This document shows positions 17,988 to 33,277 of a stretch of DNA of 64,000 nt, piece by piece. Made by a program: the position numbers and the translations under genes. The DNA is from an uncultured Burkholderiales bacterium (GTDB lineage: Bacteria > Actinomycetota > Acidimicrobiia > IMCC26256 > JACPCJ01): the NCBI GenBank assembly GCA_964615175.1, contig CAZTOV010000003.1:3708-67707 (forward strand). The letters run 5' to 3'. Under the pieces are notes generated by a model, which was given only the letters and a program-made list of their open reading frames with translations, was not told the DNA's origin and made no database searches. Each line of letters starts with the position of its first letter. Position 1 is the first letter of the stretch.

Positions 17988-20119
17988 GAGCACGGACTCC
18001 CGACGAGAGAGGCGTCCTCGATCGAGACGGCGTGAACGTCGCCTACGAGGTGCACGGTAGTGGGGATCCCGCCATCGTGTTCCTCCCCGCGTTCCCCGTT
18101 GCCGACGAGCGGCTGTGGAAGGCGCAGGTCCCGCACTTCGCCCGGCGGCTCCGCGTCTTGGTGCTCGAGCCGCGGGGCCACGGCCGTTCCGATCGGCCGA
18201 CTGACCCCGACGCGTACCGGCGCGAACACCGGGTAGGCGACATCGAAGAGCTGCTCGACGCGACGGGCACCGATCGTGGCGTCCTGGTGGCGATGTCGCA
18301 AGGGGCACCCATTGCTCTCCAGTTCGCGGCCGACCATCCCGAGCGAACGGTCGCGGTCGTGGCCCTCGGAGCGGCGTTGCCGCACGAGCTCGGTGTCGAG
18401 GCGGCCGACAACCTCCGCACCTTCGGTGTCGATGTCGACGGAGGACGCCCGTTCAACTTCGTATGGGAGAAGGACTACGAGAGTTTCGTCGAGTTCTTTA
18501 GCCGGATGGTTGCCAACCAACCTCATTCCAGCAAGATGATCGAGGATCTCACCGAGTACGCGCACGAGACCACCGCCGCGATCCTCACCGCCCACCAGAC
18601 GGGCGATCTGCGATCCCAACTCGAGTCGGACGAGACGCTCGAGGATCTCGCGGAGCGGATCCGCTGTCCCGTGATGCTGATCCACGGCACCGACGACGCC
18701 ATCGCCCGCGTCGAGTACTCGAAGCGTGCCGCTGAGATCCTTGGCGCGCGTCTCGAGATTCTCGAGGGCGTGGGTCACGGGATGCAGGGCCGCTACCCCG
18801 TACGGTTCAACAACCTGGTCGACGACTTCCTTGCCGAGGTCGTCTCCGGAGACCGGATTGGGGGAGCCGAGCCGATCGGTCGAGAGCGCCTTCCGACACC
18901 GCCCATGCGGCGATCGGAGGGCCCGCGGGTCCTCTATCTGTCATCGCCCATCGGGCTGGGTCACGCTCGCCGCGACCTGGCGATCGCCGACGAACTCCGC
19001 GCCCTCGTTCCCGGTGCACGGGTCGAATGGCTGGCTCAGGACCCCGTCACCCGGTTCCTCGGTGCCCGCGACGAAGTGATCCATCGGGCCAGTGGCGAGC
19101 TGGCGAGCGAGTCGGGGCACCTGGAGTCCGAGACCGACGAGCACGATCTTCACGTGTTCGAGGCCGTGCGGCAGATGGACGAGATCCTGGTGAAGAACTT
19201 CATGGTCTTCCTCGATGTCCTCCGCCGGGGTGACTTCGACCTCGTGATCGGCGACGAGGCATGGGACGTCGACCACTTCCTCCATGAGGAGCCGCATCTC
19301 AAGGAGACCCGCTTCGCCTGGCTCACCGACTTCGTCGGCTACCTCCCGATGCCGGCGAAGGGGGAGCGTGATGCGGAGCTCGCGGCGGACTACAACGCGG
19401 AGATGATCGAACACGTCGAGCAACATCCCGAGATCCGCGATGCCGCGATCTTCGTCGGCGAGCCGGATGACGTCATCGAGCTTCCGTTCGGCCCCGGGCT
19501 CCCTGCAATCCGCGAGTGGACCGCGCATCACTACGAGTTCAGTGGCTACGTGACCGGCTTCGACCCTGCCACGCTCCCCGAGCGGAACGAGCTACGAACA
19601 GAGCTGGGTTACGGGCTCGACGAAGTGATCTGTATCGTCGCCGTGGGTGGGTCGGGAGTCGGCCGCCCACTGCTCACCCGCATCCTCGACGCGCACCCAC
19701 TCGCTGCAGTAGAAGTTCCCGGGTTGCGGACCGTCCTCGTGACCGGCCCCCGCATCGAACCGGACTCGCTGCCCGACGTGCCCGGAGTGGACAAGCGAGC
19801 ATTCGTACCGGACTTACACCGGCACCTGGCGGCCGCCGATGTCGCGGTCGTGCAGGGTGGCTTGACGACCACGATGGAGCTCACCGCCGCCGGCGTCCCG
19901 TTCCTTTACGTTCCGCTCCTGAACCACTTCGAGCAACAGTTCCACGTTCGTCATCGACTCGAGCGCTATCGGGCTGGCCGCCCCGTCGATTACGCGTCGG
20001 CGACGCCCGAGTCTTTCGCCGAGGAACTCGTCTCCGCGATCGGCGTCAAGACCGACTACCGGCCCGTCATTGGAGACGGCGCCGCGAACGCAGCGGCCAA
20101 GATCGCTGCAATTCTCTGA
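17984..20119 (+). CDS. Alpha/beta hydrolase fused to a glycosyltransferase-like (GT-B) domain
   Basis: 711 aa. The N-terminal ~290 aa carry hydrolase motifs (AMSQGA elbow, GVGHG). The C-terminal part, LYLSSPIGLGHARRDLAIADEL..GGLTTTMEL, resembles MGT/GT28-type transferases. Confidence 0.7.
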   Translation: MRARTPDERGVLDRDGVNVAYEVHGSGDPAIVFLPAFPVADERLWKAQVPHFARRLRVLVLEPRGHGRSDRPTDPDAYRREHRVGDIEELLDATGTDRGVLVAMSQGAPIALQFAADHPERTVAVVALGAALPHELGVEAADNLRTFGVDVDGGRPFNFVWEKDYESFVEFFSRMVANQPHSSKMIEDLTEYAHETTAAILTAHQTGDLRSQLESDETLEDLAERIRCPVMLIHGTDDAIARVEYSKRAAEILGARLEILEGVGHGMQGRYPVRFNNLVDDFLAEVVSGDRIGGAEPIGRERLPTPPMRRSEGPRVLYLSSPIGLGHARRDLAIADELRALVPGARVEWLAQDPVTRFLGARDEVIHRASGELASESGHLESETDEHDLHVFEAVRQMDEILVKNFMVFLDVLRRGDFDLVIGDEAWDVDHFLHEEPHLKETRFAWLTDFVGYLPMPAKGERDAELAADYNAEMIEHVEQHPEIRDAAIFVGEPDDVIELPFGPGLPAIREWTAHHYEFSGYVTGFDPATLPERNELRTELGYGLDEVICIVAVGGSGVGRPLLTRILDAHPLAAVEVPGLRTVLVTGPRIEPDSLPDVPGVDKRAFVPDLHRHLAAADVAVVQGGLTTTMELTAAGVPFLYVPLLNHFEQQFHVRHRLERYRAGRPVDYASATPESFAEELVSAIGVKTDYRPVIGDGAANAAAKIAAIL

Positions 20120-20295
20120 CACCGCTCTGAGGGCGTGCCGGAAACCGCCTCCTGTCGAGAACCTTCTCAGGTTTGCGCCACGCGTTTGCCCCACCCGTTC
20201 TGATATTCGACGGCAGAATCGGGTAGGGAGCGGACCGTCGGCCGCTTCTAGGTCTTCCTGTCCGGGGGATGTCCTTGCAGGTCCGCCACTTTGTC

Positions 20296-21729
20296 GGCTC
20301 TCCGCGATGAACGCTGGGGCGCGATGGGTGGGTTCGCCGTTCCATAGGGGTCCACCACCCGCGCCGAAGGCCTCCGCATTGTTGCGACTGCCGAGTCAGC
20401 AACAACGAGGGAGGCCTCCGGTGATGATCGAACGTAGTGCGGGTGCGACCGCGCTCTTGGGACTCGACGGCTTCGTGGCCGGCGCCCAGGTCGAAGAGGA
20501 CGGCGAGGTGTGGATCCTTGTCGAGACCACCGACGACGTGGCGGGCTGCCCGTTGTGTGGGACGCGGGCGGTCGGCAACGGCCGCCGCACAGTCAAGGTC
20601 CGCGACCTGCCCGCGGGCGACCGTCCGGTGGTGTTGGTGTGGCGGAAGCGCACCTGGGTGTGCCCCGCTCCCGAGTGCCCGGTCAAGTGCTTCTCGGAGG
20701 AGACCGACGCCGTCGCCCCGCGGGCGTGCCTCACGGAGCGGGCCCGGGCGGAGATCTGCCGGCGGGTGGGCAACGACGGCCACTCGGTCGCCCAGACAGC
20801 CCGGGACTTCGGGGTGTCGTGGGCCACCGCGATGGCGGCGGTGATCGACTACGGCAAGCCCCGCGTCGACCATCTCACCGCCCTGGGGAAGCCCGAGGCG
20901 CTCGGCCTCGACGAGACGTTGTTCCTCACGGCGACCGCGACGCGTCCCACGCTCATGGTCACCGGGTTCGTGGACCTCGACCGGCACCGGCTCCTCGACG
21001 TCGTGCCTGGCCACAGCGCCCACGCGGTCACCGGCTGGCTCGAGACCAAGCCGCCGGTGTGGAAGGCCGGCATCCGAGTCGTGGCACTCGACCCGTTCCG
21101 CGGCTACGCCACCGGCATCCGCAGAGGTCTGCCGCGTGCCCGCCAGGTCGTCGACCACTTCCACGCCATCCGCCTCGCCAACCGGACCCTCGACGAGGCC
21201 CGCCGACGCGTCCAGAACGAGACCCTCGGGCACCGCGGCCGCAAGGGCGACCCCCTCTACCGGATCCGCCGGCTCCTCCTCGTCGCCCACGAACGGCTCA
21301 GCGACACCGGCTGGGAACGCATCGAGAACGGGCTACGCCAAGGCGACCCCTACGACGAAGTCGGATCCGCCTACCTCGCCAAGGAGCTGCTGCGCGAGGT
21401 CTACGCCACCACCTCACCCCAGGTGGCGAGGGCCCGCCTCCGCACCTTCGACGCCCACTGCCACGACAGCAGCGTCCCCGAACTCGCCCGCCTCGCCCGC
21501 ACCATCCGATCCTGGAAGGCCGAGATCCTCGCCTGGCACGACACCGGACTCACCAACGGGCCCACCGAAGCCACCAACCTGCTCATCAAGAAGATCAAGC
21601 GGGTCGGCCACGCGTTCCGGAACTTCGAGAACTATCGGCTCCGACTCTTGCTCCACTGCGGCATCCAATGGAAACCTCGCCGGGTCGCCTCAATGCGAGG
21701 CCGTAACCCAGCGTTGGTCGCGTAGAGCC
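20296..21729 (+). mobile_element. ISL3-family insertion sequence with 8-bp target-site duplication
   Basis: IRL GGCTCTCCGCGATGAACGCTGGGG (20296-20319) versus the reverse complement of the right end, GGCTCTACGCGACCAACGCTGGGT, matches at 20/24. Flanking direct repeat ACTTTGTC at 20288-20295 and 21730-21737. Confidence 0.85.
20424..21725 (+). CDS. ISL3 family transposase
   Basis: 433 aa from ATG 20424 (RBS GAGGGAGG). N-terminal Zn-finger-like CPLCG..VCPAPECP. The C-terminus (TNGPTEATNLLIKKIKRVGHAFRNFENYRLRLL) is typical of ISL3. Confidence 0.9.
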   Translation: MIERSAGATALLGLDGFVAGAQVEEDGEVWILVETTDDVAGCPLCGTRAVGNGRRTVKVRDLPAGDRPVVLVWRKRTWVCPAPECPVKCFSEETDAVAPRACLTERARAEICRRVGNDGHSVAQTARDFGVSWATAMAAVIDYGKPRVDHLTALGKPEALGLDETLFLTATATRPTLMVTGFVDLDRHRLLDVVPGHSAHAVTGWLETKPPVWKAGIRVVALDPFRGYATGIRRGLPRARQVVDHFHAIRLANRTLDEARRRVQNETLGHRGRKGDPLYRIRRLLLVAHERLSDTGWERIENGLRQGDPYDEVGSAYLAKELLREVYATTSPQVARARLRTFDAHCHDSSVPELARLARTIRSWKAEILAWHDTGLTNGPTEATNLLIKKIKRVGHAFRNFENYRLRLLLHCGIQWKPRRVASMRGRNPALVA

Positions 21730-21743
21730 ACTTTGTCGGGGCG

Positions 21744-22781
21744 GTGATGGACCCTTTGGTTGCAGACCAATGCGACCGAAAGGAGTCCATCACCGTGACC
21801 CCCGACCAGATCATCTTCCATCGTCGCGTCCGCGCGATCGAACATGCTGAGGAATCCGGGAACGTCTCGGAGACCTGCCGGGTCTTCGGGATCTCCCGAA
21901 CCACGTTCTACAAGTGGCAGAACCTGGCCGAGGACTATGGCCTCGATGCTCTGATGCCCAAGGGCCGTCGTCGCCCCCAGATGCCGAATGCCACCCCGAC
22001 TCACGTCGTCGAGGAGATCCTCACCTTGGCGGTGATGCGACCCACACTGGGGTGCCGGCGCTACGCCGACGAGTTGGAGCAGCGTGGCTATGCGGTGTCG
22101 AAGACCACGGTGCAGAAGATCCTGGTGGACCACGGCCTCGGCCGGCGTTCCCAGCGGGTGGCGAGAGCGGCCGCCCTCGCTGCGCTCACCGCCGGGCTGG
22201 TCACCGAGGCGGCGGTCGACGACGAACTGTTCGGGTTCTGCCACTTCGCTTCGGACCCGGGCCAGCTCGTGGCGCTCGATTCCTTCTACATCGGGAACCT
22301 CAAGGGCGTGGGGAAGGTGTACCAGCTCACCGCGGTGGACACCGCCACGCGCTGGGCGGTGATGCTGTTGCTGATCGGCCCCGTCACCGCCGAGGACACC
22401 ATCCGCTTCGTGGACCACGCCGTGCGCCGCTTCCGCCGCCACGGCATCCGAGTGCGCAGCGTCCTCACCGACAACGGACCCGAATACAAGGCCCGAGCTT
22501 TCCAACACGCCCTGGCCGCCAAGGGCCTCCAGCACCACCGCACCCCTCCTCGGAGCCCCAACCACAACGCCGTGTGCGAACGCTTCCAGGGCACCGCCCT
22601 CCAGGAATGCTGGCGCCCCGCCTTCCACCGCCGACGCTTCACCAGCGTCCGCCAGCTCCAAGCCGAAGCCGACTCGTGGCTGGTCGACTACAACACCCGC
22701 CGACGCAACCACAGCGACTTCATGCGAGGCCGCACCCCACTCGAGGTTCTCGACAGCCACAAGAAAAAGCAGGCAGCATGA
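21744..22781 (+). CDS. IS481-family (rve/DDE) transposase
   Basis: 345 aa. HTH region CRVFGISRTTFYKWQ. DDE core (LVALDSFY..., TDNGPEYK..., RSPNHNAVCERF). Confidence 0.9.
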   Translation: MMDPLVADQCDRKESITVTPDQIIFHRRVRAIEHAEESGNVSETCRVFGISRTTFYKWQNLAEDYGLDALMPKGRRRPQMPNATPTHVVEEILTLAVMRPTLGCRRYADELEQRGYAVSKTTVQKILVDHGLGRRSQRVARAAALAALTAGLVTEAAVDDELFGFCHFASDPGQLVALDSFYIGNLKGVGKVYQLTAVDTATRWAVMLLLIGPVTAEDTIRFVDHAVRRFRRHGIRVRSVLTDNGPEYKARAFQHALAAKGLQHHRTPPRSPNHNAVCERFQGTALQECWRPAFHRRRFTSVRQLQAEADSWLVDYNTRRRNHSDFMRGRTPLEVLDSHKKKQAA

Positions 22782-22842
22782 CCATCAGCCAAAGGGTCCA
22801 CCTGTCAGGTCGACTCCCGGGCGGGAAGGCCTAGAAGAGTGA

Positions 22843-24459
22843 TCAGGAGACAGCGACGTCTCGGTGTCGATTCGTGGAGCACTTGTGTTGCGCGCCGCTC
22901 TCACCGAACCATCGCCTCGCTCGCTGGCTCGGACCGCCGGGCTTCTTGTCGATGATGTGCACCGTCCACGGTTTCCCGTCACGATCGGCGAGCGCAAGAC
23001 GCACAACCCCGAGGAGGTGGGTGTCGACGGAGGCGAGAGCATGACCCATGACCGCGACGGTGTTGGTGACCGAGAAGACCCCACGGGCCGCATCGGCGAT
23101 TTCGGCGAGCGGTGCCGCGGCGTAATCCTTGAGTTCCTGCGGGGGTATTAGTACTTGGCGGAACGATGAGGGTCGCCCGCGACGCGGGGGGCAGTCACAG
23201 AATCGCCGAATGGCGCCAACCGTCGCCCACGGTTCGAGCCAAGATTGCCAGCGATGGATGCGCCCCGGACATTCGGCCAGGTCGATCGACCCGTGAACCT
23301 TGAGGAGTGGTAACCAACGCGGAGCGCGCACCAGACGTTCCTCCGCTATTCGATCCGCGCCAGCCATATCAAGCGCGTCGGGAAACGACCCAGGCATCAT
23401 GTTTGGAAAGTGGCGTCCCCCCGAGTAGCGCCGGACTCTTGTTCCAAACTCCAGGACCCGAAACGGCTGGCGAATGTCGCTGGCGGCGAGTGTCCACGCG
23501 GTCTCGACGAACAAGTCGTAGTTCGTGGTTACCACGGCATCGCCTCTCGACAAACGCTTGACGAGGTCGTAGTACACATCGAAGAAGCCAGCCAACGATC
23601 GAAGTTGAGCCCCGTTAGCCGAGCAGCGTCGAGCTGCCCACAGTAGGTCGAGCCAACGGTCGCCCCTGCGCTCTTCGTTGTGGTGACCTTGTGGGATCAG
23701 AAGAAAGTCGCCCGGGTTGTCGTGAAGGAGCCTTCCTCGCAGCGACAGCCAGAAGTCGTCTTCAGTAATCCGGCGCCCGGTGTCACCGCTGAGCTTCTTC
23801 CAAAGGAGACCGGCAGCGTCGAACATTGCCGAGGGTGGTTGGCCGTCTTTGGTCGGGATTTCGTACACGCGGGTACACACTCTGGCTATTGTGTCGACCG
23901 CTTGTCGCTCATGGCGGTTACGCGCGTCGCGGCTGTCCGGTGTGTTCACCGCGTGCGACAACAGAACTTGCCCGAGTACTTGCTTCTCGGGCGTGAGTTC
24001 TCTTAGCAGCTGGTCCTTCGCCCATTCTTCGGGGGATTCGAGGAACGCCCGGACCGATTCGATGGAAGATTGAGCGTACGGCGCGTTCCAGAGGGGGAGA
24101 CGCACATCTTCGAGTGCCTCGACGATGCGGCGGTGGCAGCTCGCGATCACCCCGTTGTGAACTGTGAGGATCGCGCGTTGGAGGCTTCGCAAGTCTCGAG
24201 CTGATCGTCCCCCTGCTGATCGCTGACCTATCAGAGCCTCGTCGCAGGCTGCCCATGCTTCTTGTATTGGGGGGTGCTTCAAGCGTTCGTCGTCCGGATC
24301 GTAGGGAATTCGCTGGTCCTCCATGAACTCACGGACGATCTCCGTGGAGCGAACGGGCGCGTCGCGAACGACATCTGGGGTAAGAAAGTCCCATAGCGTC
24401 GGCGCCCCGGCCGGGGCGGACGCGCCGGCGCCGAGCAGCCAAACCACAGCCATCGCCAC
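22843..24459 (-). CDS. SIR2-like (SIR2_2-type) protein, candidate NADase defence effector
   Basis: 538 aa, GTG start (alternative ATG 24453). Motifs LLGAGAS (aa 8-14), VVTTNYD (aa 309-315), LLKVHGS (aa 385-391). About 295 aa lie between the first two motifs. Lower-GC context. The stop is 6 nt from the IS481 right end. Confidence 0.7.
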   Translation of the reverse strand: MAMAVVWLLGAGASAPAGAPTLWDFLTPDVVRDAPVRSTEIVREFMEDQRIPYDPDDERLKHPPIQEAWAACDEALIGQRSAGGRSARDLRSLQRAILTVHNGVIASCHRRIVEALEDVRLPLWNAPYAQSSIESVRAFLESPEEWAKDQLLRELTPEKQVLGQVLLSHAVNTPDSRDARNRHERQAVDTIARVCTRVYEIPTKDGQPPSAMFDAAGLLWKKLSGDTGRRITEDDFWLSLRGRLLHDNPGDFLLIPQGHHNEERRGDRWLDLLWAARRCSANGAQLRSLAGFFDVYYDLVKRLSRGDAVVTTNYDLFVETAWTLAASDIRQPFRVLEFGTRVRRYSGGRHFPNMMPGSFPDALDMAGADRIAEERLVRAPRWLPLLKVHGSIDLAECPGRIHRWQSWLEPWATVGAIRRFCDCPPRRGRPSSFRQVLIPPQELKDYAAAPLAEIADAARGVFSVTNTVAVMGHALASVDTHLLGVVRLALADRDGKPWTVHIIDKKPGGPSQRARRWFGESGAQHKCSTNRHRDVAVS

Positions 24460-24502
24460 AGGTCAACAGCTTCGGCAGGCCAACGCAACCGACCCACCGC
24501 CA

Positions 24503-24841
24503 TCACCTCAGCTGCTCCTGAGGCCGAACCCAGTGAGCAACAAGCTCGATTGTTCGCGTGTAGCGGCGACGCGCCCAGCGTCCGGGACGGCAAGCCTGCG
24601 ACGGTGCATTGGATCGGGTTGCCCACCGGCGGCACCGAACCGGCGTATGTCGTCGGTCCGAGACGCCTCCACGCGCTCGCCCGGTGAGGTGAATCAGTTG
24701 CACCTTCTGGATGATGGGCTCGAAAAGCCGGCGTACGATTTGTTCGCAGAGCCGGTCTTCACTCTCCCGGGTCAGATCGCCGACCCTCAGATTCTCGGAC
24801 AGAATGTCGTGAAGGGTCCACGACTCGGAGTTCGCTTCCAT
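24503..24841 (-). CDS. Candidate small ORF upstream of the SIR2-like gene (uncertain)
   Basis: ATG 24841. The first ~55 codons (MEANSESWTLHDILSENLRVGDLTRESEDRLCEQIVRRLFEPIIQKVQL..) have clearly higher third-position GC by my count than the overlapping plus frame. The Arg-rich distal half looks non-genuine, so there may be a frameshift. Confidence 0.3.
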   Translation of the reverse strand: MEANSESWTLHDILSENLRVGDLTRESEDRLCEQIVRRLFEPIIQKVQLIHLTGRARGGVSDRRHTPVRCRRWATRSNAPSQACRPGRWARRRYTRTIELVAHWVRPQEQLR

Positions 24842-25160
24842 GGATCTCGAAGCTGTCGATGACAGGATCCTCGCCGAACTTGGAGCGTCGCTTCTCGGGG
24901 AGGCGAAGGAGCTTTCACCCTCTGACGTTCGCCGACTGGCAACCATCGGCCGACATTGGCTTCGTGAGAATCTCGACGCGCTGGTCGAGATCATCTGCAG
25001 CGACCCACGCGTGGTCGGGTGGAGGGCGGCGAGTTCGTCCGACCCGGTCGAACTTGCTGCTCTGGTTGCAGACGCCTTCGCGGGTATGCGGGGTTGGCCG
25101 CCCGCCGCGTCGATCGCACGACTCGTGAGCCGTATCGGTATCGACCGATTCTGTTCGTGA
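24840..25160 (+). CDS. Hypothetical small protein, translationally coupled to the HExxH protein
   Basis: 106 aa. ATG 24840 lies inside CCATGG, shared with the minus-strand ATG at 24841. The stop overlaps the next start (GTGA at 25157-25160). Confidence 0.5.
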   Translation: MDLEAVDDRILAELGASLLGEAKELSPSDVRRLATIGRHWLRENLDALVEIICSDPRVVGWRAASSSDPVELAALVADAFAGMRGWPPAASIARLVSRIGIDRFCS

Positions 25161-26458
25161 CCATCGCGGAGTCGATCGCTCAGGCCATCCGATGGCGCCT
25201 CGATGTCGATGAGATTGAGGAAAGCCGCCGAAATGTCGATGCGCAGGTCGAACGTGGGTTCGTTTTCGAGCCCGAAGAGATGCCCCTGGTCGAGGCTGCG
25301 CGCGCCAAGATCGACGCCGATGACTCTTGGGCCGATGCGTTCATCGGCGCGATCACCGCATACCTGAGTGACTCCCGCCGAGTCGGCGACAGCGCAAAGG
25401 CCACCTCAGCGTTACGTGATCGGGCGGCGATCACCTTCGTTGACCATCTCGGCGTCAGCGTGACCGTCAGTCGATGCAGTGACGAGTCCGTCCTCATCGT
25501 GGCCGATCGAGGTGTTCTCTGGATGCTCAGCGCACTCGCGGCGACGCTCGCTTCGGTCTGGCCCATTGGGGGCCACAGGTCGGTGACGACGTCCGTCCCC
25601 CTCGAGCTTCGCGTCGAGGCAGCAGCCCGGCGTCTCCTTCGCAACCCACAGCCACTTGTGCGCCACCGACACGCGCCGAGTCGCTACGCGCTGCAAGCCG
25701 ATCTCGTCTTCCACGCGATGACGTTCGCGATCGCGCACGAGTTCGGACACGTCGCGTTGGGGCACACCGTTAACGGCCGTTCGTCGTCCTTCGCAGGCAC
25801 GGAAGTAGCCGTACCGGCTGGCGTCACGGTCGAGGAGTTCGCCGCTGACGCCGCTGCCCTTCGCGCATGTCTTCAGGAATCCGAGTCAGAGGCCGATGAG
25901 CTGTTGGTGCGTCTTGCCGGCGTTCGCTGTCTCTTCACAACGCTCAGCACACTGGAGCGTTACGCCTACGCCGTCCCCGCGACCAGCCATCCGCCAGCAG
26001 ACGAACGCTGGAGGCGCGTCGCAGGAGCACTCGTCCGCTCTGGTCAAAGGGAAGTCACTGACCGGCTCGACGGCCTCTGGCACGCGACGAGAGCCGGCAG
26101 TACACCGGCGCGACTACCGAGCCCGAGCGATCTCGTCTCCCGCCTTCGATCCGATGCGAGTCTGTGCCAGGAGATCCTCCCCGAGAACGCGGTTCGGTCG
26201 CTCGCGGCAGCGGATCGTTGGTTCACGACACCGTTGGAGATGCACCGCCGATATTTGGCTGAGGCACATGTCGACCACGGCGTAGAGCTCGAGTCGGCGG
26301 GGCGCGCCATCCACGATGCCGTTAGTGCCGCCGTGTCGTCAGGTGGGCTCAGTTGGAGAACGCTGTTCGATGCGATCGAGAACCGCAACCAACGACTGCT
26401 TCCATCGAAGACCGCGATCTCTGTTGCTCGAACTGCATACGCAGACTGTCGCCCCTGA
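25157..26458 (+). CDS. HExxH zinc-metallopeptidase-like protein (ImmA/IrrE-like motif)
   Basis: 433 aa from GTG 25157. Single motif FAIAHEFGHVALGH. No other recognisable domain by eye. Confidence 0.55.
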   Translation: MTIAESIAQAIRWRLDVDEIEESRRNVDAQVERGFVFEPEEMPLVEAARAKIDADDSWADAFIGAITAYLSDSRRVGDSAKATSALRDRAAITFVDHLGVSVTVSRCSDESVLIVADRGVLWMLSALAATLASVWPIGGHRSVTTSVPLELRVEAAARRLLRNPQPLVRHRHAPSRYALQADLVFHAMTFAIAHEFGHVALGHTVNGRSSSFAGTEVAVPAGVTVEEFAADAAALRACLQESESEADELLVRLAGVRCLFTTLSTLERYAYAVPATSHPPADERWRRVAGALVRSGQREVTDRLDGLWHATRAGSTPARLPSPSDLVSRLRSDASLCQEILPENAVRSLAAADRWFTTPLEMHRRYLAEAHVDHGVELESAGRAIHDAVSAAVSSGGLSWRTLFDAIENRNQRLLPSKTAISVARTAYADCRP

Positions 26459-26549
26459 GAGCGTGCGATTTCCTGCCGATGCCGCTGAGGAACTTGCTGA
26501 GATCGCCATCGAATGGGCCGCAGAGCGAGGTGCGGTCTTCGAGTGACCG

Positions 26550-27104
26550 TCAGCTCGTGGCTACTCCGTCTTCATCGATGTTGTCGAACAGTGAGGGGGT
26601 CCCCAAGCGCCATCGCCACGCGCGCCGTCCTCGACTGGTCCTGAGAAGCCGCAGCCGGGTCTGTCCGAGTCGATACTCGGCGGCGTCCACGTCGACGTCC
26701 TTGGTGCCATCCCACGCGGCGCTGATCGCCAGGCTCGCGTTGAGCACGTCGCCCGCCGCGTCGACGAGATCGGCCCTGGCGTGTTGGATCAGCTCGCCAT
26801 GTGCCCGGACGACTTCGTCGATCTTCGCGAGCCCGCGCTCCATGATCGCGATCGCTGCTTCCCGCGGAACCGCTGGTCGTCGGTCCACGAACAGTTGGCG
26901 CCAGAGGGGGCCATCGGCGAACGCGTGGCCGAACCGCACGATGCCCTGGACGGCCATCGCTGTCGTGGCGAGGTCCGTCACCGCTTGCTCTTCGGATCGT
27001 CTCCGTTCCGCCCACCGTCCGAGGCCGTGGTTGACCAAGTAACCGACGATGGCGATTAGGGCTGCGACGACGATTGCGTTTGCTTGGCTCATGGCGTTCA
27101 GCAT
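26550..27104 (-). CDS. Hypothetical membrane-anchored protein
   Basis: 184 aa. One N-terminal TM (AIVVAALIAIVGYLV), helical remainder. Lies downstream of the Xis-like ORF on the same strand. Confidence 0.5.
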   Translation of the reverse strand: MLNAMSQANAIVVAALIAIVGYLVNHGLGRWAERRRSEEQAVTDLATTAMAVQGIVRFGHAFADGPLWRQLFVDRRPAVPREAAIAIMERGLAKIDEVVRAHGELIQHARADLVDAAGDVLNASLAISAAWDGTKDVDVDAAEYRLGQTRLRLLRTSRGRRAWRWRLGTPSLFDNIDEDGVATS

Positions 27105-27234
27105 GCCTCAATCAGGCGACGATCCAGGGGAGGAATCGCCGACGATCCAGTTGATTGGGGAGGTCGTAGCGCCACGCCTTCTGAGGCAACTACGGGGAGG
27201 GGTGCCCTTCCGGCTGGCGTCGCGCTTCGTCTAA

Positions 27235-27441
27235 CTACGCCACAACCTCGTCCTGATCGAAGCGAAACAGATGACCCCACTTGATTGTGAGGATCGGGAT
27301 GCGACGCTCGAAGACGAGTCGCCACACGTGCCGGACGGTTACGCCCGCGAACCGCGCCCAGAGCTGTCGTTCCGTGGCACTCATAGAAGACAGCGCTTCG
27401 TTGGCCCGGGAGCCTGAAGAGCGACGACGAGGCGGCGTCAC
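27235..27441 (-). CDS. Excisionase / HTH_17-type DNA-binding protein (orphan Xis)
   Basis: 68 aa. GVTVRHVWRLVFERRIPILTIKWGHLFRFDQDEV matches the MerR-like excisionase pattern (HTH, then 'hydrophobic-K/R-hydrophobic-G-x-x-hydrophobic-R-hydrophobic'). Confidence 0.65.
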   Translation of the reverse strand: MTPPRRRSSGSRANEALSSMSATERQLWARFAGVTVRHVWRLVFERRIPILTIKWGHLFRFDQDEVVA

Positions 27442-27514
27442 GGTGGCAGCGGCGGGGATCCGGCGATAGCCAGCGGAGGATCACCCCAGCGGACGTGGCA
27501 CGCTGGATGTTCTC

Positions 27515-28351
27515 ATGAAGGCCCGTGCAACCGCCGCTCTTGCTCAGCTTCGCGATGGCGAGTTCATCGAGGCGGTAGCGCGCGGTCTGTCACTGACCGT
27601 TGAGTGGATCGAGAACCTCGAGAGGTGGGCAAGTCACCTCGAGGAGAACCACGCCGGCGGTGCTGATGTCCTTCGGGTCGTCGCCGACGAGGAAGCCGCC
27701 AAGTACCTCATTCTTGTGGACGCTGTTCGGTGCCCACGACGCTCCCAGAAGGTGCGGGTCAGGCAGCTGAAGCGGTGCCACAGGCATATCGAGAAGGGGA
27801 TCTACGCCGAGGCGTGCGACTACTCGCCGTCTACATACAAGGACCTCCTCGGTTATATCGAGCACATGCGGCTCAGCCATTATCTCGATGGCCCCAACGA
27901 CGTTGATTGGATCTTTCGCAACGTGGTCGAAGCCCGGCGTGAGGAGCGGCTCTATGTCGATTACGTCGAGGGCGACGACGGTCAGGAGTGGTGGACGCCT
28001 TCCCGCTTCGACAGGCTGTCGGTGTGGTCATCGGACTCGTCTGCAGTTCGCGTGGTCCGGTCCCTCACCCGAGCGGGTCTTGGCGTTCCCGCCGGCCTGA
28101 GGATCGTGGCCGACATCTGGCGCGAGTTCGAGGTGAGGGACGAGACGACGTACGCGGAGCTGCGAAACACGATCAACGAGACGGTTCTCCGCCTGAAATC
28201 GGCCGGGGTCTTCCAGGCGGATTTCGCCGGCCATGATCACAGCGTGATCGTCGACTCCTGGCAGTTCCCCCTGTATCTCGCCGACCTCACCGTGATCGAG
28301 GTCGACGTGGAGGAACTGCGCGAGCGGCAGCGCAATTGGACGCCCGACTGA
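27515..28351 (+). CDS. Hypothetical protein, weak HEPN/AbiV-like features
   Basis: 278 aa. N-terminal helical segment ending VVADEEAAKYLILVDAV resembles the AbiV EExxK helix. R/H-rich LKRCHRHIEK. No firm assignment. Confidence 0.45.
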   Translation: MKARATAALAQLRDGEFIEAVARGLSLTVEWIENLERWASHLEENHAGGADVLRVVADEEAAKYLILVDAVRCPRRSQKVRVRQLKRCHRHIEKGIYAEACDYSPSTYKDLLGYIEHMRLSHYLDGPNDVDWIFRNVVEARREERLYVDYVEGDDGQEWWTPSRFDRLSVWSSDSSAVRVVRSLTRAGLGVPAGLRIVADIWREFEVRDETTYAELRNTINETVLRLKSAGVFQADFAGHDHSVIVDSWQFPLYLADLTVIEVDVEELRERQRNWTPD

Positions 28352-28858
28352 GCTGTCCAAGGACGCCTTCCCACGTGAGCCACTCCGACGACCGCCGGAC
28401 AGCGCCGTCAAATGCGCTACGCAATGACCTTGGAGTGGCATGCCCGCGAGGGCCGAGAGGCTCTTTTCACCGGCGATGCGGCAGTCCCTTGTGGCTTGAC
28501 CAGCCGCTTCGCGGACTTGACACAGCTACCAATCGGGGGCGAGCAGCTCGTCATGTGACCACCGAGCGGGGCGACGCGAGCCACGTCGAGCCCTACGCGA
28601 GTCTTCTCCCGACCGCAAGGGTGGTGGCCTTTGAGGTGCTTACCCGCAATGGCCCCACTTCGTCGAGTTGGCGCCATGGTCGCACGCGCGCGTCCAATCG
28701 CCGGCTGTTGCGGGCGCATTCTGGAGCGTCCCCAAGTAGGCACTTCGGAGACGGGGGCTCTGCGGTGATCTCGTGGACGTCCAAGCCGGGGGGATCTGGC
28801 CTGCATCGAGCATCCGGTCCGCGGATCAATACCAAACGGGTCTTCTAACGTTGGTGGC

Positions 28859-31813
28859 GTGACTGATCCCTTTACAGGAGCGGCACTCGCAGAGTTCGTG
28901 GGTGGCGTAGCTGCGCACGCACTACTTGGTGCCCTCGGCACAGCGCACCGCCAGCTGAAGCGGGTCGGGAAAAGCGAGCGCTCGCAGATTCGCGACCTCA
29001 GACGGCTGGTGGACCACCCACGATTTGGAGACCACATCGCAGGCGTTGTTGACGCTGGGCTTCGAGCCATCGAATCCGACGCACCTGGTCACTTGACCGG
29101 ATCATTGCGTAGGGAGTTGCTGCCGATGCTTGAGCGTCTGATGGAGTGGCGTATCGCTGGGGTTGATAGGTCTGTGCTTTCCGTACTTCGGCTTGAATGG
29201 CAGCGCACCGTGCGCCTGTACGCGAGTGGGCCGGACAGCGAAGTCTTGGATGGGGCTTTCAACATTCTGGTACAGGTGGCCGATGCGAGCGCCGAATACC
29301 TGGCGGGTGCTGGGGCTCGTTTCGACTTGATTGACGAGCACCAAGTTCATCTCCGTGCGGTCGAAGGACAACTTGAGGCTTTGCGCCGGTCGATAGATGG
29401 GCCATCAAGCAGCGAAGCACTCACAGCTGGCGAAATCCAGCAGGTACGGGGCCGCCTGCGACGCCAGGCCGAGCTTCACCACCGATATGTGACTCCCCCT
29501 GACTTCGAGCGGCAGCGTCGGATTCCGCTCGCAGACATATATGTGAAGCCGCGGGCTGAGCCCGTGACCGCAGATCTCGCTCGTATGGACCTCCGTGTCG
29601 ACGTGGACGAACTTCTCGCGCAGGAGCCTCGACTCGTAGTCCTCGGTGCACCCGGTGCAGGGAAATCAACGCTGGCGGGCTACTTCTGCCACCAACTGTC
29701 CACCGCGACTGAGACAGACGAGACCCATCCGCAGACAGCGGCCGTGGTTGTGCTGAGAAATGCCGTGGCCACACAACAACCGGGATCTTTTGCTGTTCGG
29801 TCGGCGATCGTGGACACCTTTGAGGGCGTATATCAGGTGAACGTCAAGTCTTCCATTCTTGAACACCTGTTGATTTCGGGCGGCCTGACAGTGATCTTTG
29901 ACGGGTTGGACGAGTTGCTCGATGCGACCCGTCGACGTGAGGTCGCCGCAGCGATAGAGGCGTTTGGGCACGCCTATCCGAGGGTCAGAATTCTCGTTAC
30001 CTCGAGGCGCGTTGGTTACGAGCAGGCACCGCTGGATGACGGCATGTTTCCGGTATACAGGCTGACGGAGTTCTCTGAGGCAGCCGTAGAGGATTACGTC
30101 GAACGATGGTTCCAGTACCACGCAGCTGAATACGGCGGCACAACTCCGGCGGAACTTCAACGGAACTTCATGCACGAAAGCCGCAGCGTGGCTGACCTCC
30201 GCAGTAACGCGCTCTTGTTGTCGTTGATGTGCATCCTGTATCGGGGACGTCAGTACATCCCACGCAACCGCCCCGATCTGTACGAGGAGTGTGCGCGCCT
30301 GCTGTTTTCGGATTGGGACCGGCATCGACGTATTCAAGGTGAAACCACGTTTGATCTTCAGACGCAGTTCGTATTGCAGCATCTCGCCACATGGATCATG
30401 AGTGACCGGGATCGGGAACGCGGATGTACCGAAGCTGATTTGGTGGATGAGACATGCCGCTACTTCGCCGAGTGGGTCTATGACGACGTCGATGTTGCTC
30501 GTGACGCGGCTCGGAGCCTCTTCACCTACTGCCGAGGTCGCTCCTGGATCTTGTCAGAGGTCGGCACGACTGCCGATGGCCAAGGTATTTGGTCTTTCAC
30601 GCACCGCACGTTCCTCGAGTATTTCGCCGGCCTCGGGCTTGCGCGATCAAACCCATCGATCGACGGATTTGCCGGTCACGTCGCCGAGCTTTTAGGGGAT
30701 GCGCGGTTCGAGGTCATCGCTCAGATCGCTGTGTACCGCAAAGCACGAGAGGCCGCGGGCGCGATCGATCAGATACTCCTTCACCTTCTTGAGCGCGCTC
30801 CATCAGGGGCAAGCCGTGATCGGTTGATCGGCTTTGTCTGTCGTATGCTCCAGCTTGTTGTGCCGAAGCCGTCGACGACAACGGCGATCGTTGAGGCTGC
30901 AGTTGCCCGAGATCTCGAGCAGACCGCCCGGCGCGAGTCCCATCCCGGGTTTCATACCGTGGGGGTAGTGGCCGGTCGCCCTGAGGTCCTAGCGGTGTCG
31001 AGGCGCTCCCTGGTTGGAACTCTGACCAGGACGGCAACAGCACGTTCTTCCGCGGCACGACTTGTATCCAAGTTGATCTCATCGATCACGGCCGAATCAA
31101 TTCATCATTTTCAACCGTCGTTGTTTGATCAGGATCCTCGACCGGAGTACGCAGAGGGATTCCAAGTTTGGCAGAACGTGTCGAGGGAGGTCTTGTCGGA
31201 GATCCACCCTGTGTTGTACGACATCGCGAGCCAGGATGCGGAGACGGCGCGCGACCTGCTTCGGGAGAGACAACTCAGCGCCGAGGCCTATCTCGAACTT
31301 CACGATTGGGGTGGACTCTTCGCTGCTGAGCGCGAGAGCGGCACTGCCTACATCGTGGAGGCCCTGAACTCTCTGCCGAACACACCTGGCCTCGTGGGAA
31401 GTGCAACGGACGTGATCGAGAGCCTGGGCCAGGCTGCAATGTCGGGTCCGCCTCCCTACGTTGCGGTTGACGTTGACGACGTACCGGACGTCACATACTT
31501 GCGCCCAGGGGCCGTGACAGATGTCGACATGGGCAGCCCGTTGTTTGTCGGAGTGTCCATCGCCCTGTGCCTGCTCGATGAACTCACAGACGGCGAAGTT
31601 GCGGATCAAATTGAGCCGATGAGTCTTGCCACTCTTGATGGCATGAAGGATGTTCTGCGCGGGAGGTTAGAGCATGAGTCCGAAATAGCAGATCGTGGCC
31701 TACGTGCACTCGATCTGCCCTCGACGGTCAAGTCCGCAATGCGCGACTGGGCCGCTGGCACCAGCCTGTTCGCGAAACGGAGTAGTAAGGGTCCGCCGCA
31801 GACTGGCGATTGA
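28859..31813 (+). CDS. NACHT-type STAND NTPase (bacterial NLR-like)
   Basis: 984 aa, GTG start. Walker A VVLGAPGAGKST (aa 260-271), Walker B LTVIFDGLDEL (aa 343-353), then ILVTSRRVGY. The N-terminal ~230 aa are helical with a Gly/Ala-rich first helix. The C-terminal ~550 aa show no obvious repeats. Lowest-GC part of the window. Confidence 0.8.
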   Translation: MTDPFTGAALAEFVGGVAAHALLGALGTAHRQLKRVGKSERSQIRDLRRLVDHPRFGDHIAGVVDAGLRAIESDAPGHLTGSLRRELLPMLERLMEWRIAGVDRSVLSVLRLEWQRTVRLYASGPDSEVLDGAFNILVQVADASAEYLAGAGARFDLIDEHQVHLRAVEGQLEALRRSIDGPSSSEALTAGEIQQVRGRLRRQAELHHRYVTPPDFERQRRIPLADIYVKPRAEPVTADLARMDLRVDVDELLAQEPRLVVLGAPGAGKSTLAGYFCHQLSTATETDETHPQTAAVVVLRNAVATQQPGSFAVRSAIVDTFEGVYQVNVKSSILEHLLISGGLTVIFDGLDELLDATRRREVAAAIEAFGHAYPRVRILVTSRRVGYEQAPLDDGMFPVYRLTEFSEAAVEDYVERWFQYHAAEYGGTTPAELQRNFMHESRSVADLRSNALLLSLMCILYRGRQYIPRNRPDLYEECARLLFSDWDRHRRIQGETTFDLQTQFVLQHLATWIMSDRDRERGCTEADLVDETCRYFAEWVYDDVDVARDAARSLFTYCRGRSWILSEVGTTADGQGIWSFTHRTFLEYFAGLGLARSNPSIDGFAGHVAELLGDARFEVIAQIAVYRKAREAAGAIDQILLHLLERAPSGASRDRLIGFVCRMLQLVVPKPSTTTAIVEAAVARDLEQTARRESHPGFHTVGVVAGRPEVLAVSRRSLVGTLTRTATARSSAARLVSKLISSITAESIHHFQPSLFDQDPRPEYAEGFQVWQNVSREVLSEIHPVLYDIASQDAETARDLLRERQLSAEAYLELHDWGGLFAAERESGTAYIVEALNSLPNTPGLVGSATDVIESLGQAAMSGPPPYVAVDVDDVPDVTYLRPGAVTDVDMGSPLFVGVSIALCLLDELTDGEVADQIEPMSLATLDGMKDVLRGRLEHESEIADRGLRALDLPSTVKSAMRDWAAGTSLFAKRSSKGPPQTGD

Positions 31814-31912
31814 GATTCGCGCGGGCAGCTGTCAACCGCCGTACCGCCTCACGCTGGCGGCAGGGACCAATGGTGGCGCTGTCCCCGAGAGGCCACTTGG
31901 TGGGCAGTCAGG

Positions 31913-32884
31913 GTGACACGCGATTCTCCTCGCCAGCAGCGTGCCTTCTCGTGCGACAATCATGGCGCCATGAGCGAGGACCGTTGCCCCTACTGCCTGC
32001 AGCCCTTCTCGGATGGTGGCGGCAGGACGGACGAGCACATCTTCGGCGAGGCGTTTGGAAGTCGAGCGCATGTGGATGCCTGCCGCGAGTGCAGCGGAAC
32101 GCTCGGCCAGACGGTGGAGGGCGACATCCATGCGCGCGATTCCGTGATCGATCTCATCAAGTGGGCGGCAGGAGAGAAGTCGATGCGCGGTGAAGCTGCC
32201 CTCGGGGATGAGGGAAGGCGTGTTGAGGTCGTGGTCGACGCCGACGGGCGCCCCGTGCTGGAACATCCGGACGTGCGGTACGAGAGACAGGGGGATCGTT
32301 TGGAGGGACGGCTGACCTTCCCCGAGGGAACACCACCTGAGAAGATGGTCGCTGGCATCGAGAAACGTCTGCGGCGCGAGGGGCTCCCGGAAGAAGTTGC
32401 GAAGGAAGAGGCCAAGAAAGCAGTTGCCGACGCGGTGATCGTCAGCCAGTCAGTAGAAGTGGAGTCGACCCTCGAAGCCGATCTTGGCTCGCTTCGACGG
32501 CATAGCGCCAAGGTCGCGCTCGCGGCGTCTGTTGCAGTAGGCGTTCCGATCGACAGCGAGTTCAGCGAAGCGTTACGTAAGAAACTGCACTCATCCGACG
32601 GAATGCCTGAACAGGCAGCCGACTCACAGATCGTCGAACGGATCCAGCAGAACGTGTCCACCGCTGGTCTCACACCACCCGTCGCGAGCGATGGTCGTCC
32701 CTCAGCACAGGTGACGTTCGCGGCCGTCGAGGAAGGGACACTGGTCGACGTACACATTCTTGGACAACCGCATCCGTCCGGTCCGGCTCTGATCCCTGTG
32801 GCGATGCCCGAACTCGGCATGGACGGAATCAGGGTGGTCCGAGAGGCGAGCCAGCCTCTCGAGGTGCTGAGCGTCTCCGGCTAA
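31913..32884 (+). CDS. HNH-like (HNH_5-type CxxC..DEH..CxxC) domain protein
   Basis: 323 aa from GTG 31913; a more likely start is ATG 31970 (MSEDRCPYC..). CPYCLQPFSDGGGRTDEHIFGEAFG..ACRECSGTLG fits a beta-beta-alpha-Me/HNH layout. The remaining ~260 aa are unassigned. Lies 99 nt downstream of the NACHT gene on the same strand. Confidence 0.55.
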   Translation: MTRDSPRQQRAFSCDNHGAMSEDRCPYCLQPFSDGGGRTDEHIFGEAFGSRAHVDACRECSGTLGQTVEGDIHARDSVIDLIKWAAGEKSMRGEAALGDEGRRVEVVVDADGRPVLEHPDVRYERQGDRLEGRLTFPEGTPPEKMVAGIEKRLRREGLPEEVAKEEAKKAVADAVIVSQSVEVESTLEADLGSLRRHSAKVALAASVAVGVPIDSEFSEALRKKLHSSDGMPEQAADSQIVERIQQNVSTAGLTPPVASDGRPSAQVTFAAVEEGTLVDVHILGQPHPSGPALIPVAMPELGMDGIRVVREASQPLEVLSVSG

Positions 32885-32940
32885 TCAACAGTCGACTGTC
32901 CTCTACCGCCGGCTCTGCGCCCCGCATGGTTGGCCCTTCG

Positions 32941-32971
32941 CTCATGTCGGGATGGGCCATCCCGACATGAG
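32941..32971. terminator. 31-nt perfect palindrome downstream of the HNH-like gene
   Basis: CTCATGTCGGGATGG-g-CCATCCCGACATGAG (arms 32941-32955 / 32957-32971), 57 nt after the stop at 32884. Confidence 0.5.
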
Positions 32972-33142
32972 CGGCTGACCTGACTGGACGGCCACACGAG
33001 CGGGCCACACGAACGGCGCGAATGACGGGGGAGCGAAGGGACATCGGGAGACGAAAGGGGAATGGGATCTCGGGTCGTCGCGGCCGCAACACGCAGGTCA
33101 GAGCCTCGGTACAGTCGCCCAGGCACGGAGGACCTCCTCGCG

Positions 33143-33203
33143 GATGGCAGAGTGGCCCCTTCCTCTCAAGGTGGAGGCACGGGTTCGAATCCCGTTGGGG
33201 GTA
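33143..33203 (+). other. tRNA-derived fragment (T-arm plus D-loop-like piece), non-functional
   Basis: GGATGGCAGAGTGGCC.. followed by ACGGG-TTCGAAT-CCCGT and TGGGGGT. There is no matching 5' acceptor strand (ACCCCCA) and no foldable anticodon arm. Confidence 0.55.
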
Positions 33204-33277
33204 CTCAGACCGAAAGTTCTGGTCGCTCCCCTTAATTCGTGGGGCGGAACGTCTTCCAAGCAGTGTCCGTTATGTCG

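Follow-up and report, generated by a model that had tools for sequence, protein, structure and literature searches.

The 64,000-nucleotide stretch of contig CAZTOV010000003.1 analysed here (the window) encodes on its minus strand a SIR2-like protein of 538 amino acids (aa) (22843..24459) that, by its predicted fold and its sequence, belongs to the SIR2 superfamily. It may be a stand-alone enzyme of the immune type (SIR2_2 or “sirim”-like), acting as a one-gene abortive-infection effector that depletes nicotinamide adenine dinucleotide (NAD+) and thereby serving in phage defence. We give this reading about an even chance of being right; DSR1/DSR2, ThsA, SIR2-HerA, and AbiH are the analogues from which we infer its chemistry, its trigger, and a defence phenotype. 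The protein retains intact NAD-binding and catalytic residues, carries a conserved helical expansion within its catalytic domain, has no partner gene conserved across related loci, and is encoded at the edge of a genomic island containing putative defence genes.

The open reading frame (ORF) starts at GTG 24459 and its stop codon occupies 22843-22845. An alternative ATG start at 24453 gives a 536-aa form, which is the product present in public data, where it occurs as a single copy at 90% identity (one NCBI record and one Logan assembly; identical protein P0001). Guanine-plus-cytosine (GC) content by codon position has its minimum at position 2 along the entire ORF, and the stretch between the SIR2 motifs is therefore coding in the same frame and not a fusion artefact. 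These motifs, all on the minus strand, are LLGAGAS (aa 8-14, 24418..24438), comprising strand 1 and the glycine-rich NAD-binding loop, VVTTNYD (aa 309-315, 23515..23535), comprising strand 2 with the catalytic residues N313 and D315, which are invariant in 25 relatives, and KVHGS (aa 387-391, 23287..23301), which contains the invariant catalytic residue H389; a script check placed all three exactly where the first-pass annotation of this DNA had put them. Across the 25 aligned sequences N313, Y314, D315, K387, H389, and G390 do not vary, and conservation is 90% or higher at G10, A11, G12, S14, and P20, five positions that are invariant in the 10 closest sequences; G18 is likewise listed as invariant in the glycine-rich loop of the family. 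Since the NAD-binding and catalytic residues are conserved, the enzyme looks catalytically competent for NAD+ cleavage.

Searches with the window protein by itself gave a match to the generic SIR2 model of PADLOC (E 6e-7) and a match to the Pfam SIR2_2 profile (PF13289) spanning profile positions 2-51 only, that is, the TTNYD-to-HGS stretch. The protein did not match the Pfam classical SIR2 profile (PF02146), a sequence search of the PDB returned nothing even at E<=10, and a word-index homologue search retrieved only the protein itself; a profile search in the same tool retrieved three short relatives and missed known ones. An exhaustive HMMER search, which covered all 1.84 billion cluster representatives, found 24 proteins at E<1e-3, with low identities of 25-31% and an extremely patchy distribution. 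Pfam assigned SIR2_2 to 22/25 aligned relatives at E<1e-3 (best 2.5e-10), classical SIR2 to one of the 25, and AbiH, weakly, to two, and the SIR2 and pAgo-SIR2 models of PADLOC matched 13-22 of them (19 for the pAgo-SIR2 models). When the family profile was compared with PDB chains, the best scores were obtained for SIR2 of the SIR2-HerA type (5e-16 to 5e-12), followed by KomC and wild-type DSR2 (about 5e-7; DSR2 5.5e-7), additional chains of KomC and DSR2, of which most are H146N and H171A mutants (4e-6 to 3e-4), classical Sir2 (1.7e-4), and ThsA and FAM118B (~2e-3).

The predicted structure points in the same direction. An AlphaFold2 model built from a 10-sequence alignment reached a predicted template modelling score (pTM) of 0.75 with a confident Rossmann core, and its candidate sheet strands lie at residues 3-9, 308-311, 382-387, 434-437, 465-471, 499-503, and 523-526. 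A central sheet of seven or more strands is expected of SIR2_2 or sirim proteins, a number that these candidates would reach if all of them belong to a single sheet. Foldseek ranked the SIR2 subunits of Escherichia coli SIR2-HerA and of PsSIR2 from Pseudomonas first in the PDB (E 1.7e-5 to 3e-5), with classical sirtuins (E 4e-3 or worse), ThsA, KomC, and DSR2 next, and a search of a viral structure library gave no significant match. The SIR2-family membership claimed in the first-pass annotation is thus borne out by the fold and by family-level hidden Markov model (HMM) evidence, with the single-protein SIR2_2 score below its cut-off and a Rossmann core predicted.

In the window protein G10 and N313 lie 303 residues apart. 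The equivalent distance is 272-279 in long-form relatives, 336 in the longer relative P0011, 161-176 in the nearest short forms, and ~120-155 in more distant relatives from genomes; in solved defence SIR2 chains it is ~85-165, as a rough reading of HMMER alignments rather than a computed value. The spacing had been described as roughly three times that expected for the fold, which holds relative to DSR2 and KomC, but relative to SIR2-HerA-type SIR2 it is only ~2x. The same annotation spoke of an insertion, and the extra residues do lie between GAGAS and TTNYD; they do not form a foreign domain, however, but an enlarged version of a variable helical subdomain. A variable alpha-helical small subdomain or loop follows strand 1 in all SIR2 proteins (bioRxiv 10.1101/2024.09.18.613514; PMC12700824). 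In the window protein it extends over aa 21-306 (23542..24399, minus strand), is enlarged compared with other SIR2 proteins, and consists only of helices in the AlphaFold2 model, in which the local confidence score (pLDDT) lies between 74 and 90 over aa 1-160 and below 50 in much of aa 160-270. The first ~105 residues of the subdomain (aa 21 to ~125) are common to short-form relatives, and an “NIEE..L..D” helix in this first part is common even to PsSIR2, while the following ~160 aa (about aa 125-285, 23605..24087, minus strand) are restricted to the long-form clade and gapped in the short forms P0007, P0009, and P0010.

This clade comprises about eight full-length members among the cluster representatives (the window protein, P0002-P0006, P0034, and P0035), in addition to the fragments P0008 and L025. 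The expansion aligns across the eight long forms, with a clade-conserved FLE(N/S)PxxW motif and an invariant F236, and is therefore a maintained module and not junk. Modelled alone and searched against the PDB, it had no analogue (best E 0.54, to chance helical bundles of the 14-3-3 or TetR type), and no credible counterpart of the clade-specific region turned up outside the family in the exhaustive sequence search, in which the sole non-family hit, P0016, is a weak, multi-stretch, uninspected match. A genome scan added 15 relatives, every one with a complete reading frame being a short form, and a metagenome scan yielded the long-form fragment L025 together with three short forms. The scan of viral contigs returned no relative, and carriage by phages or prophages is therefore not indicated. 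The C-terminal 20 aa of the window protein diverge from the family.

A further feature of the family is a zinc-ribbon-like segment after the catalytic histidine. Nearly all of the ~50 relatives, long and short, have the pattern HGS-x5-C-x2-C, with cysteines at H+8 and H+11 counted from that histidine, a spacing that we take to be that of the canonical sirtuin zinc ribbon. A second pair of cysteines (CxxC, CxC, or CC) follows 20-45 residues on and precedes an (L/I)(V/I)PP strand. In the window protein the segment occupies aa 397-423 (23191..23271, minus strand) and has C397 at H+8, H402 at H+13, C421 at H+32, and C423 at H+34. The H+11 cysteine is missing; several relatives have their second cysteine at H+13, the position of H402, and a Cys3-His site is plausible from the sequence. 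The AlphaFold2 model has a beta-hairpin at 390-397 and 402-406, and classical Sir2 chains align exactly over the segment. According to two recent papers, the zinc site and its Cys tetrad are systematically absent from sirims (bioRxiv 10.1101/2024.09.18.613514), and SIR2_2 likewise lacks the zinc module and cysteine tetrad (PMC12700824). The present family departs from this pattern, as the tetrad occurs in nearly all relatives and as three cysteines plus a histidine in the window protein, yet its HMM matches, its profile-to-PDB scores, and its fold ranking all place it with sirims.

Comparison with characterized systems places the window protein near several of them, but the defining features of SIR2-HerA, Thoeris, DSR, SPARSA, Avs5, and classical sirtuins are all lacking. 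The best match in both structure and profile is SIR2-HerA (Nezha; PDB 8uae, 8sub, 8j4u, 8w9l, 8wld), whose SIR2 shares the GAGxS motif, the “NIEE..L..D” helix, TTNYD, KLHGS(I/L)NW, and a helical subdomain larger than that of classical sirtuins. The subdomain of the window protein is, however, about twice as long, Pfam, PADLOC, and NCBIfam scans detected no HerA among the island genes, nor is one found beside the long-form relatives, and the Cys tetrad following the catalytic His in the family has no counterpart in SIR2-HerA SIR2, where PsSIR2 reads KLHGSINWQLDKQTQ. As in DSR1/DSR2, the SIR2 effector and the candidate sensing part would reside on one polypeptide with the catalytic N and H present; those proteins are ~1000 aa long with a large C-terminal sensor after a compact SIR2, whereas the window protein has 538 aa, a SIR2 core reaching to about residue 526, and its extra mass between strands 1 and 2. 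AbiH, a single-gene abortive infection protein of Lactococcus that is listed as a sirim (bioRxiv 10.1101/2024.09.18.613514), is similarly a small stand-alone immune-type SIR2-like protein, although the window protein itself has no AbiH match. A SIR2 NADase core is shared with ThsA of Thoeris, SIR2-APAZ of SPARSA, Avs5, and KomC, but the window protein carries neither a SLOG nor a Macro domain, the island has no ThsB/TIR gene, and KomA and KomB are absent. In contrast to SPARSA (SIR2-APAZ), there is no APAZ and no pAgo gene nearby, and the match to the Aga_SIR2-PNTD model is confined to the first 22 residues; in contrast to Avs5, no STAND NTPase is fused, and the NACHT gene of the island is separate, 4.4 kb away on the opposite strand. 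Classical sirtuins (Sir2Af, Sir2Tm, CobB, SIRT5) share the HGS-x5-CxxC and Cys-pair spacing and align over the segment, but they differ in having TQNID instead of TTNYD, six strands versus the seven candidate strands here, four cysteines in the zinc module versus three and a histidine, and a more distant sequence and fold, and the gene studied here lies in a defence-island context.

The protein appears to stand alone. Pfam, PADLOC, and NCBIfam scans found no further domain, and no HerA, SLOG, TIR, APAZ, or STAND domain is fused to it, so that SIR2 is its sole domain signal and the earlier statement that it lacks a fused partner holds. No partner gene is conserved across 30 loci: in all-against-all BLAST of the neighbouring ORFs of 22 loci, common neighbours were confined to two syntenic genome pairs, a BLAST comparison of 27 named long-form neighbours gave no shared gene, and no small gene is conserved upstream in the relatives. 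PADLOC applied to the unknown neighbours of long forms detected only CapP and a weak AbiGi. Upstream of the gene lies a divergent intergenic region of 380 bp (24460..24839), between it and the operon of a 106-aa gene and a Lit-like peptidase gene, in which an Rfam scan over 20-34.5 kb found nothing, and thus no known RNA element, and a promoter scan found no sigma-70-type match, a result that is uninformative for a high-GC organism.

This region holds most of the 112-codon frame (24503-24841, minus strand) that the first-pass annotation had offered as a possible small gene and second component. The frame is open, and GC at position 2 dips over its first ~55 codons, so a coding-like first half does exist; the dip is shared with the in-phase antisense frame and therefore gives no separate support for a gene. 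As read from the sequence, no Shine-Dalgarno sequence precedes ATG 24841; the second half of the frame is Arg-rich, like out-of-frame high-GC sequence, no related locus contains a match, and the frame is absent from the public gene-call table of the identical contig. For the 106-aa gene on the plus strand, which starts at 24840, a GGAG lies ~9 nt upstream, and this gene has a 4-nt overlap with the start of the next. Over 24680-24862 both the minus frame (MEANSESWTLHDILSENL...) and the in-phase plus antisense frame (...VNQLHLLDDGLEKPAYDLFAEPVF...) are protein-like for ~55 codons, and could be what is left of an older gene in this divergent region. A two-gene system comprising this ORF is scarcely probable: the open frame and its GC dip are the points in its favour, but the dip is explained equally well by the antisense frame, and the missing ribosome-binding sequence, the Arg-rich second half, the lack of any counterpart upstream of relatives, and the lack of a public gene call all speak against it.

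Defence genes surround the window gene and likewise its closest relatives. The long form P0002 is situated between unknown genes and a CBASS (cyclic oligonucleotide-based antiphage signalling system) pair of CD-NTase and Cap15, near a ScoMcrA-like gene and an integrase; downstream of it (L017:9760-11258) the CD-NTase starts 47 nt after the SIR2-like stop and is followed by the Cap15 effector gene. The long form P0035 is directly downstream of a full-length CapP peptidase (L030:616-1422; PADLOC capP 1.8e-63; HEIGH motif), whose gene is preceded by two small ORFs, one with a helix-turn-helix-like segment. The CapP and CapH pair regulates immune operons (PMC13228613), and the upstream CapP suggests DNA-damage-responsive transcriptional control of P0035. 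An AbiGi-like gene follows the long form P0005, and only unknown small genes surround P0034, while a PrsW metallopeptidase is found near P0011. Among shorter relatives, P0042 lies among PemK, KAP NTPases, HicB, and HEPN, P0043 among HATPase_c_3, SACS/NOV_C, and CHAT, and L004 adjoins an MmeI-like type IIG enzyme; P0037 is tentatively defence-like, its sole annotated neighbour being an HATPase_c_3 protein. The first-pass annotation had regarded homologues in housekeeping contexts as a counter-argument, and such contexts do occur for some distant short forms, but not for the long forms.

In the window, GC content is 0.59-0.65 over ~23-33 kb and mostly 0.66-0.72 in the flanks, and the low-GC block (22.8-33 kb) resembles a genomic island associated with a tRNA gene; the window retains no integrase. 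The SIR2-like gene forms its edge, and the rest of the island (24840..33204) carries genes on both strands. The plus-strand unit at 24840-26458 consists of the 106-aa gene, whose product weakly matches the TY-Chap3 chaperone-like family, and a gene for a 433-aa Peptidase_U49/Lit-like protein with weak matches (PADLOC Lit 6e-7, peptidase_U41 3e-7); judged from these similarities, the unit could serve in abortive infection of the Lit type, the small protein being a partner. It is followed by a 184-aa gene (26550-27104, minus strand), a 278-aa AbiV/HEPN-like gene (27515-28351, plus strand) with sub-threshold matches (Pfam AbiV/HEPN_AbiV 3e-4, TIGR04498 3e-3), a 984-aa NACHT NTPase gene (28859-31813, plus strand) matching Pfam NACHT above threshold (1.6e-8) and EruA and DS8 antiphage models weakly, and a 323-aa HNH_5-like gene (31913-32884, plus strand) that is sub-threshold. 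The cluster representative of the NACHT protein under its NCBI source is, at 895 aa, shorter than the window ORF of 984 aa. The NACHT and HNH_5-like genes (28859-32884) may constitute an Avs-like or STAND defence pair. A tRNA-Glu (CTC) gene (33132-33204, plus strand) marks the right boundary, where GC content returns to background.

The left boundary of the low-GC block, directly downstream of the SIR2 stop, is formed by nested insertion sequences (IS) on the plus strand (20245..22837). The outer, IS481-like element is bordered by 38-nt inverted repeats (20245-20282 and 22800-22837, 76% complementary) and has an rve transposase at 21744-22781; ~14 nt inside its left end lies the ISL3 element, whose inverted repeats are at 20296-20318 and 21707-21729 and whose transposase is at 20070-21725. 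As the right repeat of the IS481-like element ends at a distance of 5 nt from the SIR2 stop codon and both IS ends adjoin CTAG, the ORF is untouched and a simple insertion is likely. Truncation by the IS or loss of a downstream partner was considered and ruled out by the same two observations.

If the window protein is a NAD-depleting effector, its mode of action could be as follows. In the uninfected cell the NAD+ pocket, located where the Rossmann core meets the small subdomain, would be kept inactive. A phage-derived cue would be sensed via the enlarged helical subdomain, a change of oligomeric state, or both, and would open or order the active site, whereupon N313, D315, and H389 would cleave NAD+ and its depletion would arrest the infected cell. 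The enlarged subdomain would serve as a regulatory lid, a sensor, or an oligomerisation surface. Several observations weigh against such an effector. The window protein scores 22.8 bits against SIR2_2, under the gathering cut-off of 24.5, and had no match in the NCBIfam scan. The clade-specific helical part combines a low-confidence model with no known match, which leaves its sensor role conjectural. The family keeps a cysteine tetrad of the zinc-ribbon type, a module of deacylation in classical sirtuins and not of plain NAD hydrolysis. Informative long-form contexts number only four, and the calls for the neighbouring defence genes in the window are weak or sub-threshold save for NACHT. Finally, the distant short forms L005/L009 lie between Rho and fructose-bisphosphate aldolase, L002/L016 adjoin an extracytoplasmic function (ECF) sigma factor, the context of L007 is also plainly housekeeping, and a cupin protein adjoins one distant short form.

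Some of these observations would fit the leading alternative, a sirtuin that modifies proteins or small molecules, as a deacylase or ADP-ribosyltransferase with a regulatory or metabolic role, in which the helical subdomain and zinc ribbon would form a substrate cleft and the island position would be incidental. The zinc module has been tied to deacylation and substrate binding (bioRxiv 10.1101/2024.09.18.613514; PMC12700824), the tetrad at H+8/H+11 is present in almost all relatives where classical Sir2 aligns, and the housekeeping neighbours of some short forms include one locus syntenic between two Cloacimonadota-type genomes. Nevertheless, we consider this explanation rather unlikely, and favour NADase chemistry over protein modification, given that sequence and fold are much nearer to immune-type SIR2 with TTNYD rather than TQNID, that all informative long-form contexts are defence-like, that the distribution is extremely patchy at identities of 25-31%, and that the window protein carries a replacement for one of the zinc ligands.

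A role as one component of a multi-gene system, with the divergent 106-aa gene and Lit-like metallopeptidase as partners or with the NACHT protein as a sensor in trans (an Avs5-like split), seems improbable to us. The 380-bp divergent promoter region is common to the gene and the 106-aa/Peptidase_U49 pair, metallopeptidases also occur near other relatives (CapP at P0035, PrsW at P0011), and the NACHT gene is close; these peptidases, however, belong to unrelated families without sequence similarity, CapP is a known transcriptional regulator module and not an effector partner (PMC13228613), no gene is common to the long-form loci, and three genes separate the NACHT gene, on the opposite strand, from the SIR2-like one. 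There is also a small chance that the gene is an orphan copy decaying next to IS elements and currently without function. At 90% identity it is a singleton, present in the data of one organism only, it has lost the second zinc-ligand Cys, its C-terminal 20 aa have diverged, and an IS ends 5 nt from its stop codon. Yet the 538-codon frame is uninterrupted with coding-type GC throughout and is not truncated by the IS, all catalytic and NAD-binding residues are intact, and H402 falls exactly at H+13, where some relatives have their second ligand Cys. The stand-alone NAD-depleting effector remains our preferred explanation.

A stand-alone SIR2 protein in a defence island would not be surprising alone; what distinguishes this one is the doubled lid, the extreme rarity of its clade, and the zinc-ribbon exception. 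A tentative and rather doubtful extension is that the rare clade represents an immune-type SIR2 lineage with a kept or independently held zinc ribbon, in which the long-form lid is a built-in phage sensor, making the protein a complete single-gene NAD-depletion system outside current defence catalogues. If true, this would contradict the published rule that sirims lack the zinc ribbon and would provide a link between antiphage NADases and protein-deacylating sirtuins. If the protein is active in defence, it would be a compact one-gene SIR2 system whose sensing part is an internal expansion of the catalytic domain and not a fused or separate sensor, and it would be useful for understanding how NADase effectors are gated. 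Function aside, a Cys tetrad in the canonical position occurs in proteins that group with immune-type SIR2 by sequence and fold. This bears on the proposed evolutionary order, with NADase sirims first and zinc-dependent deacylases later, for which the family offers a concrete test set.

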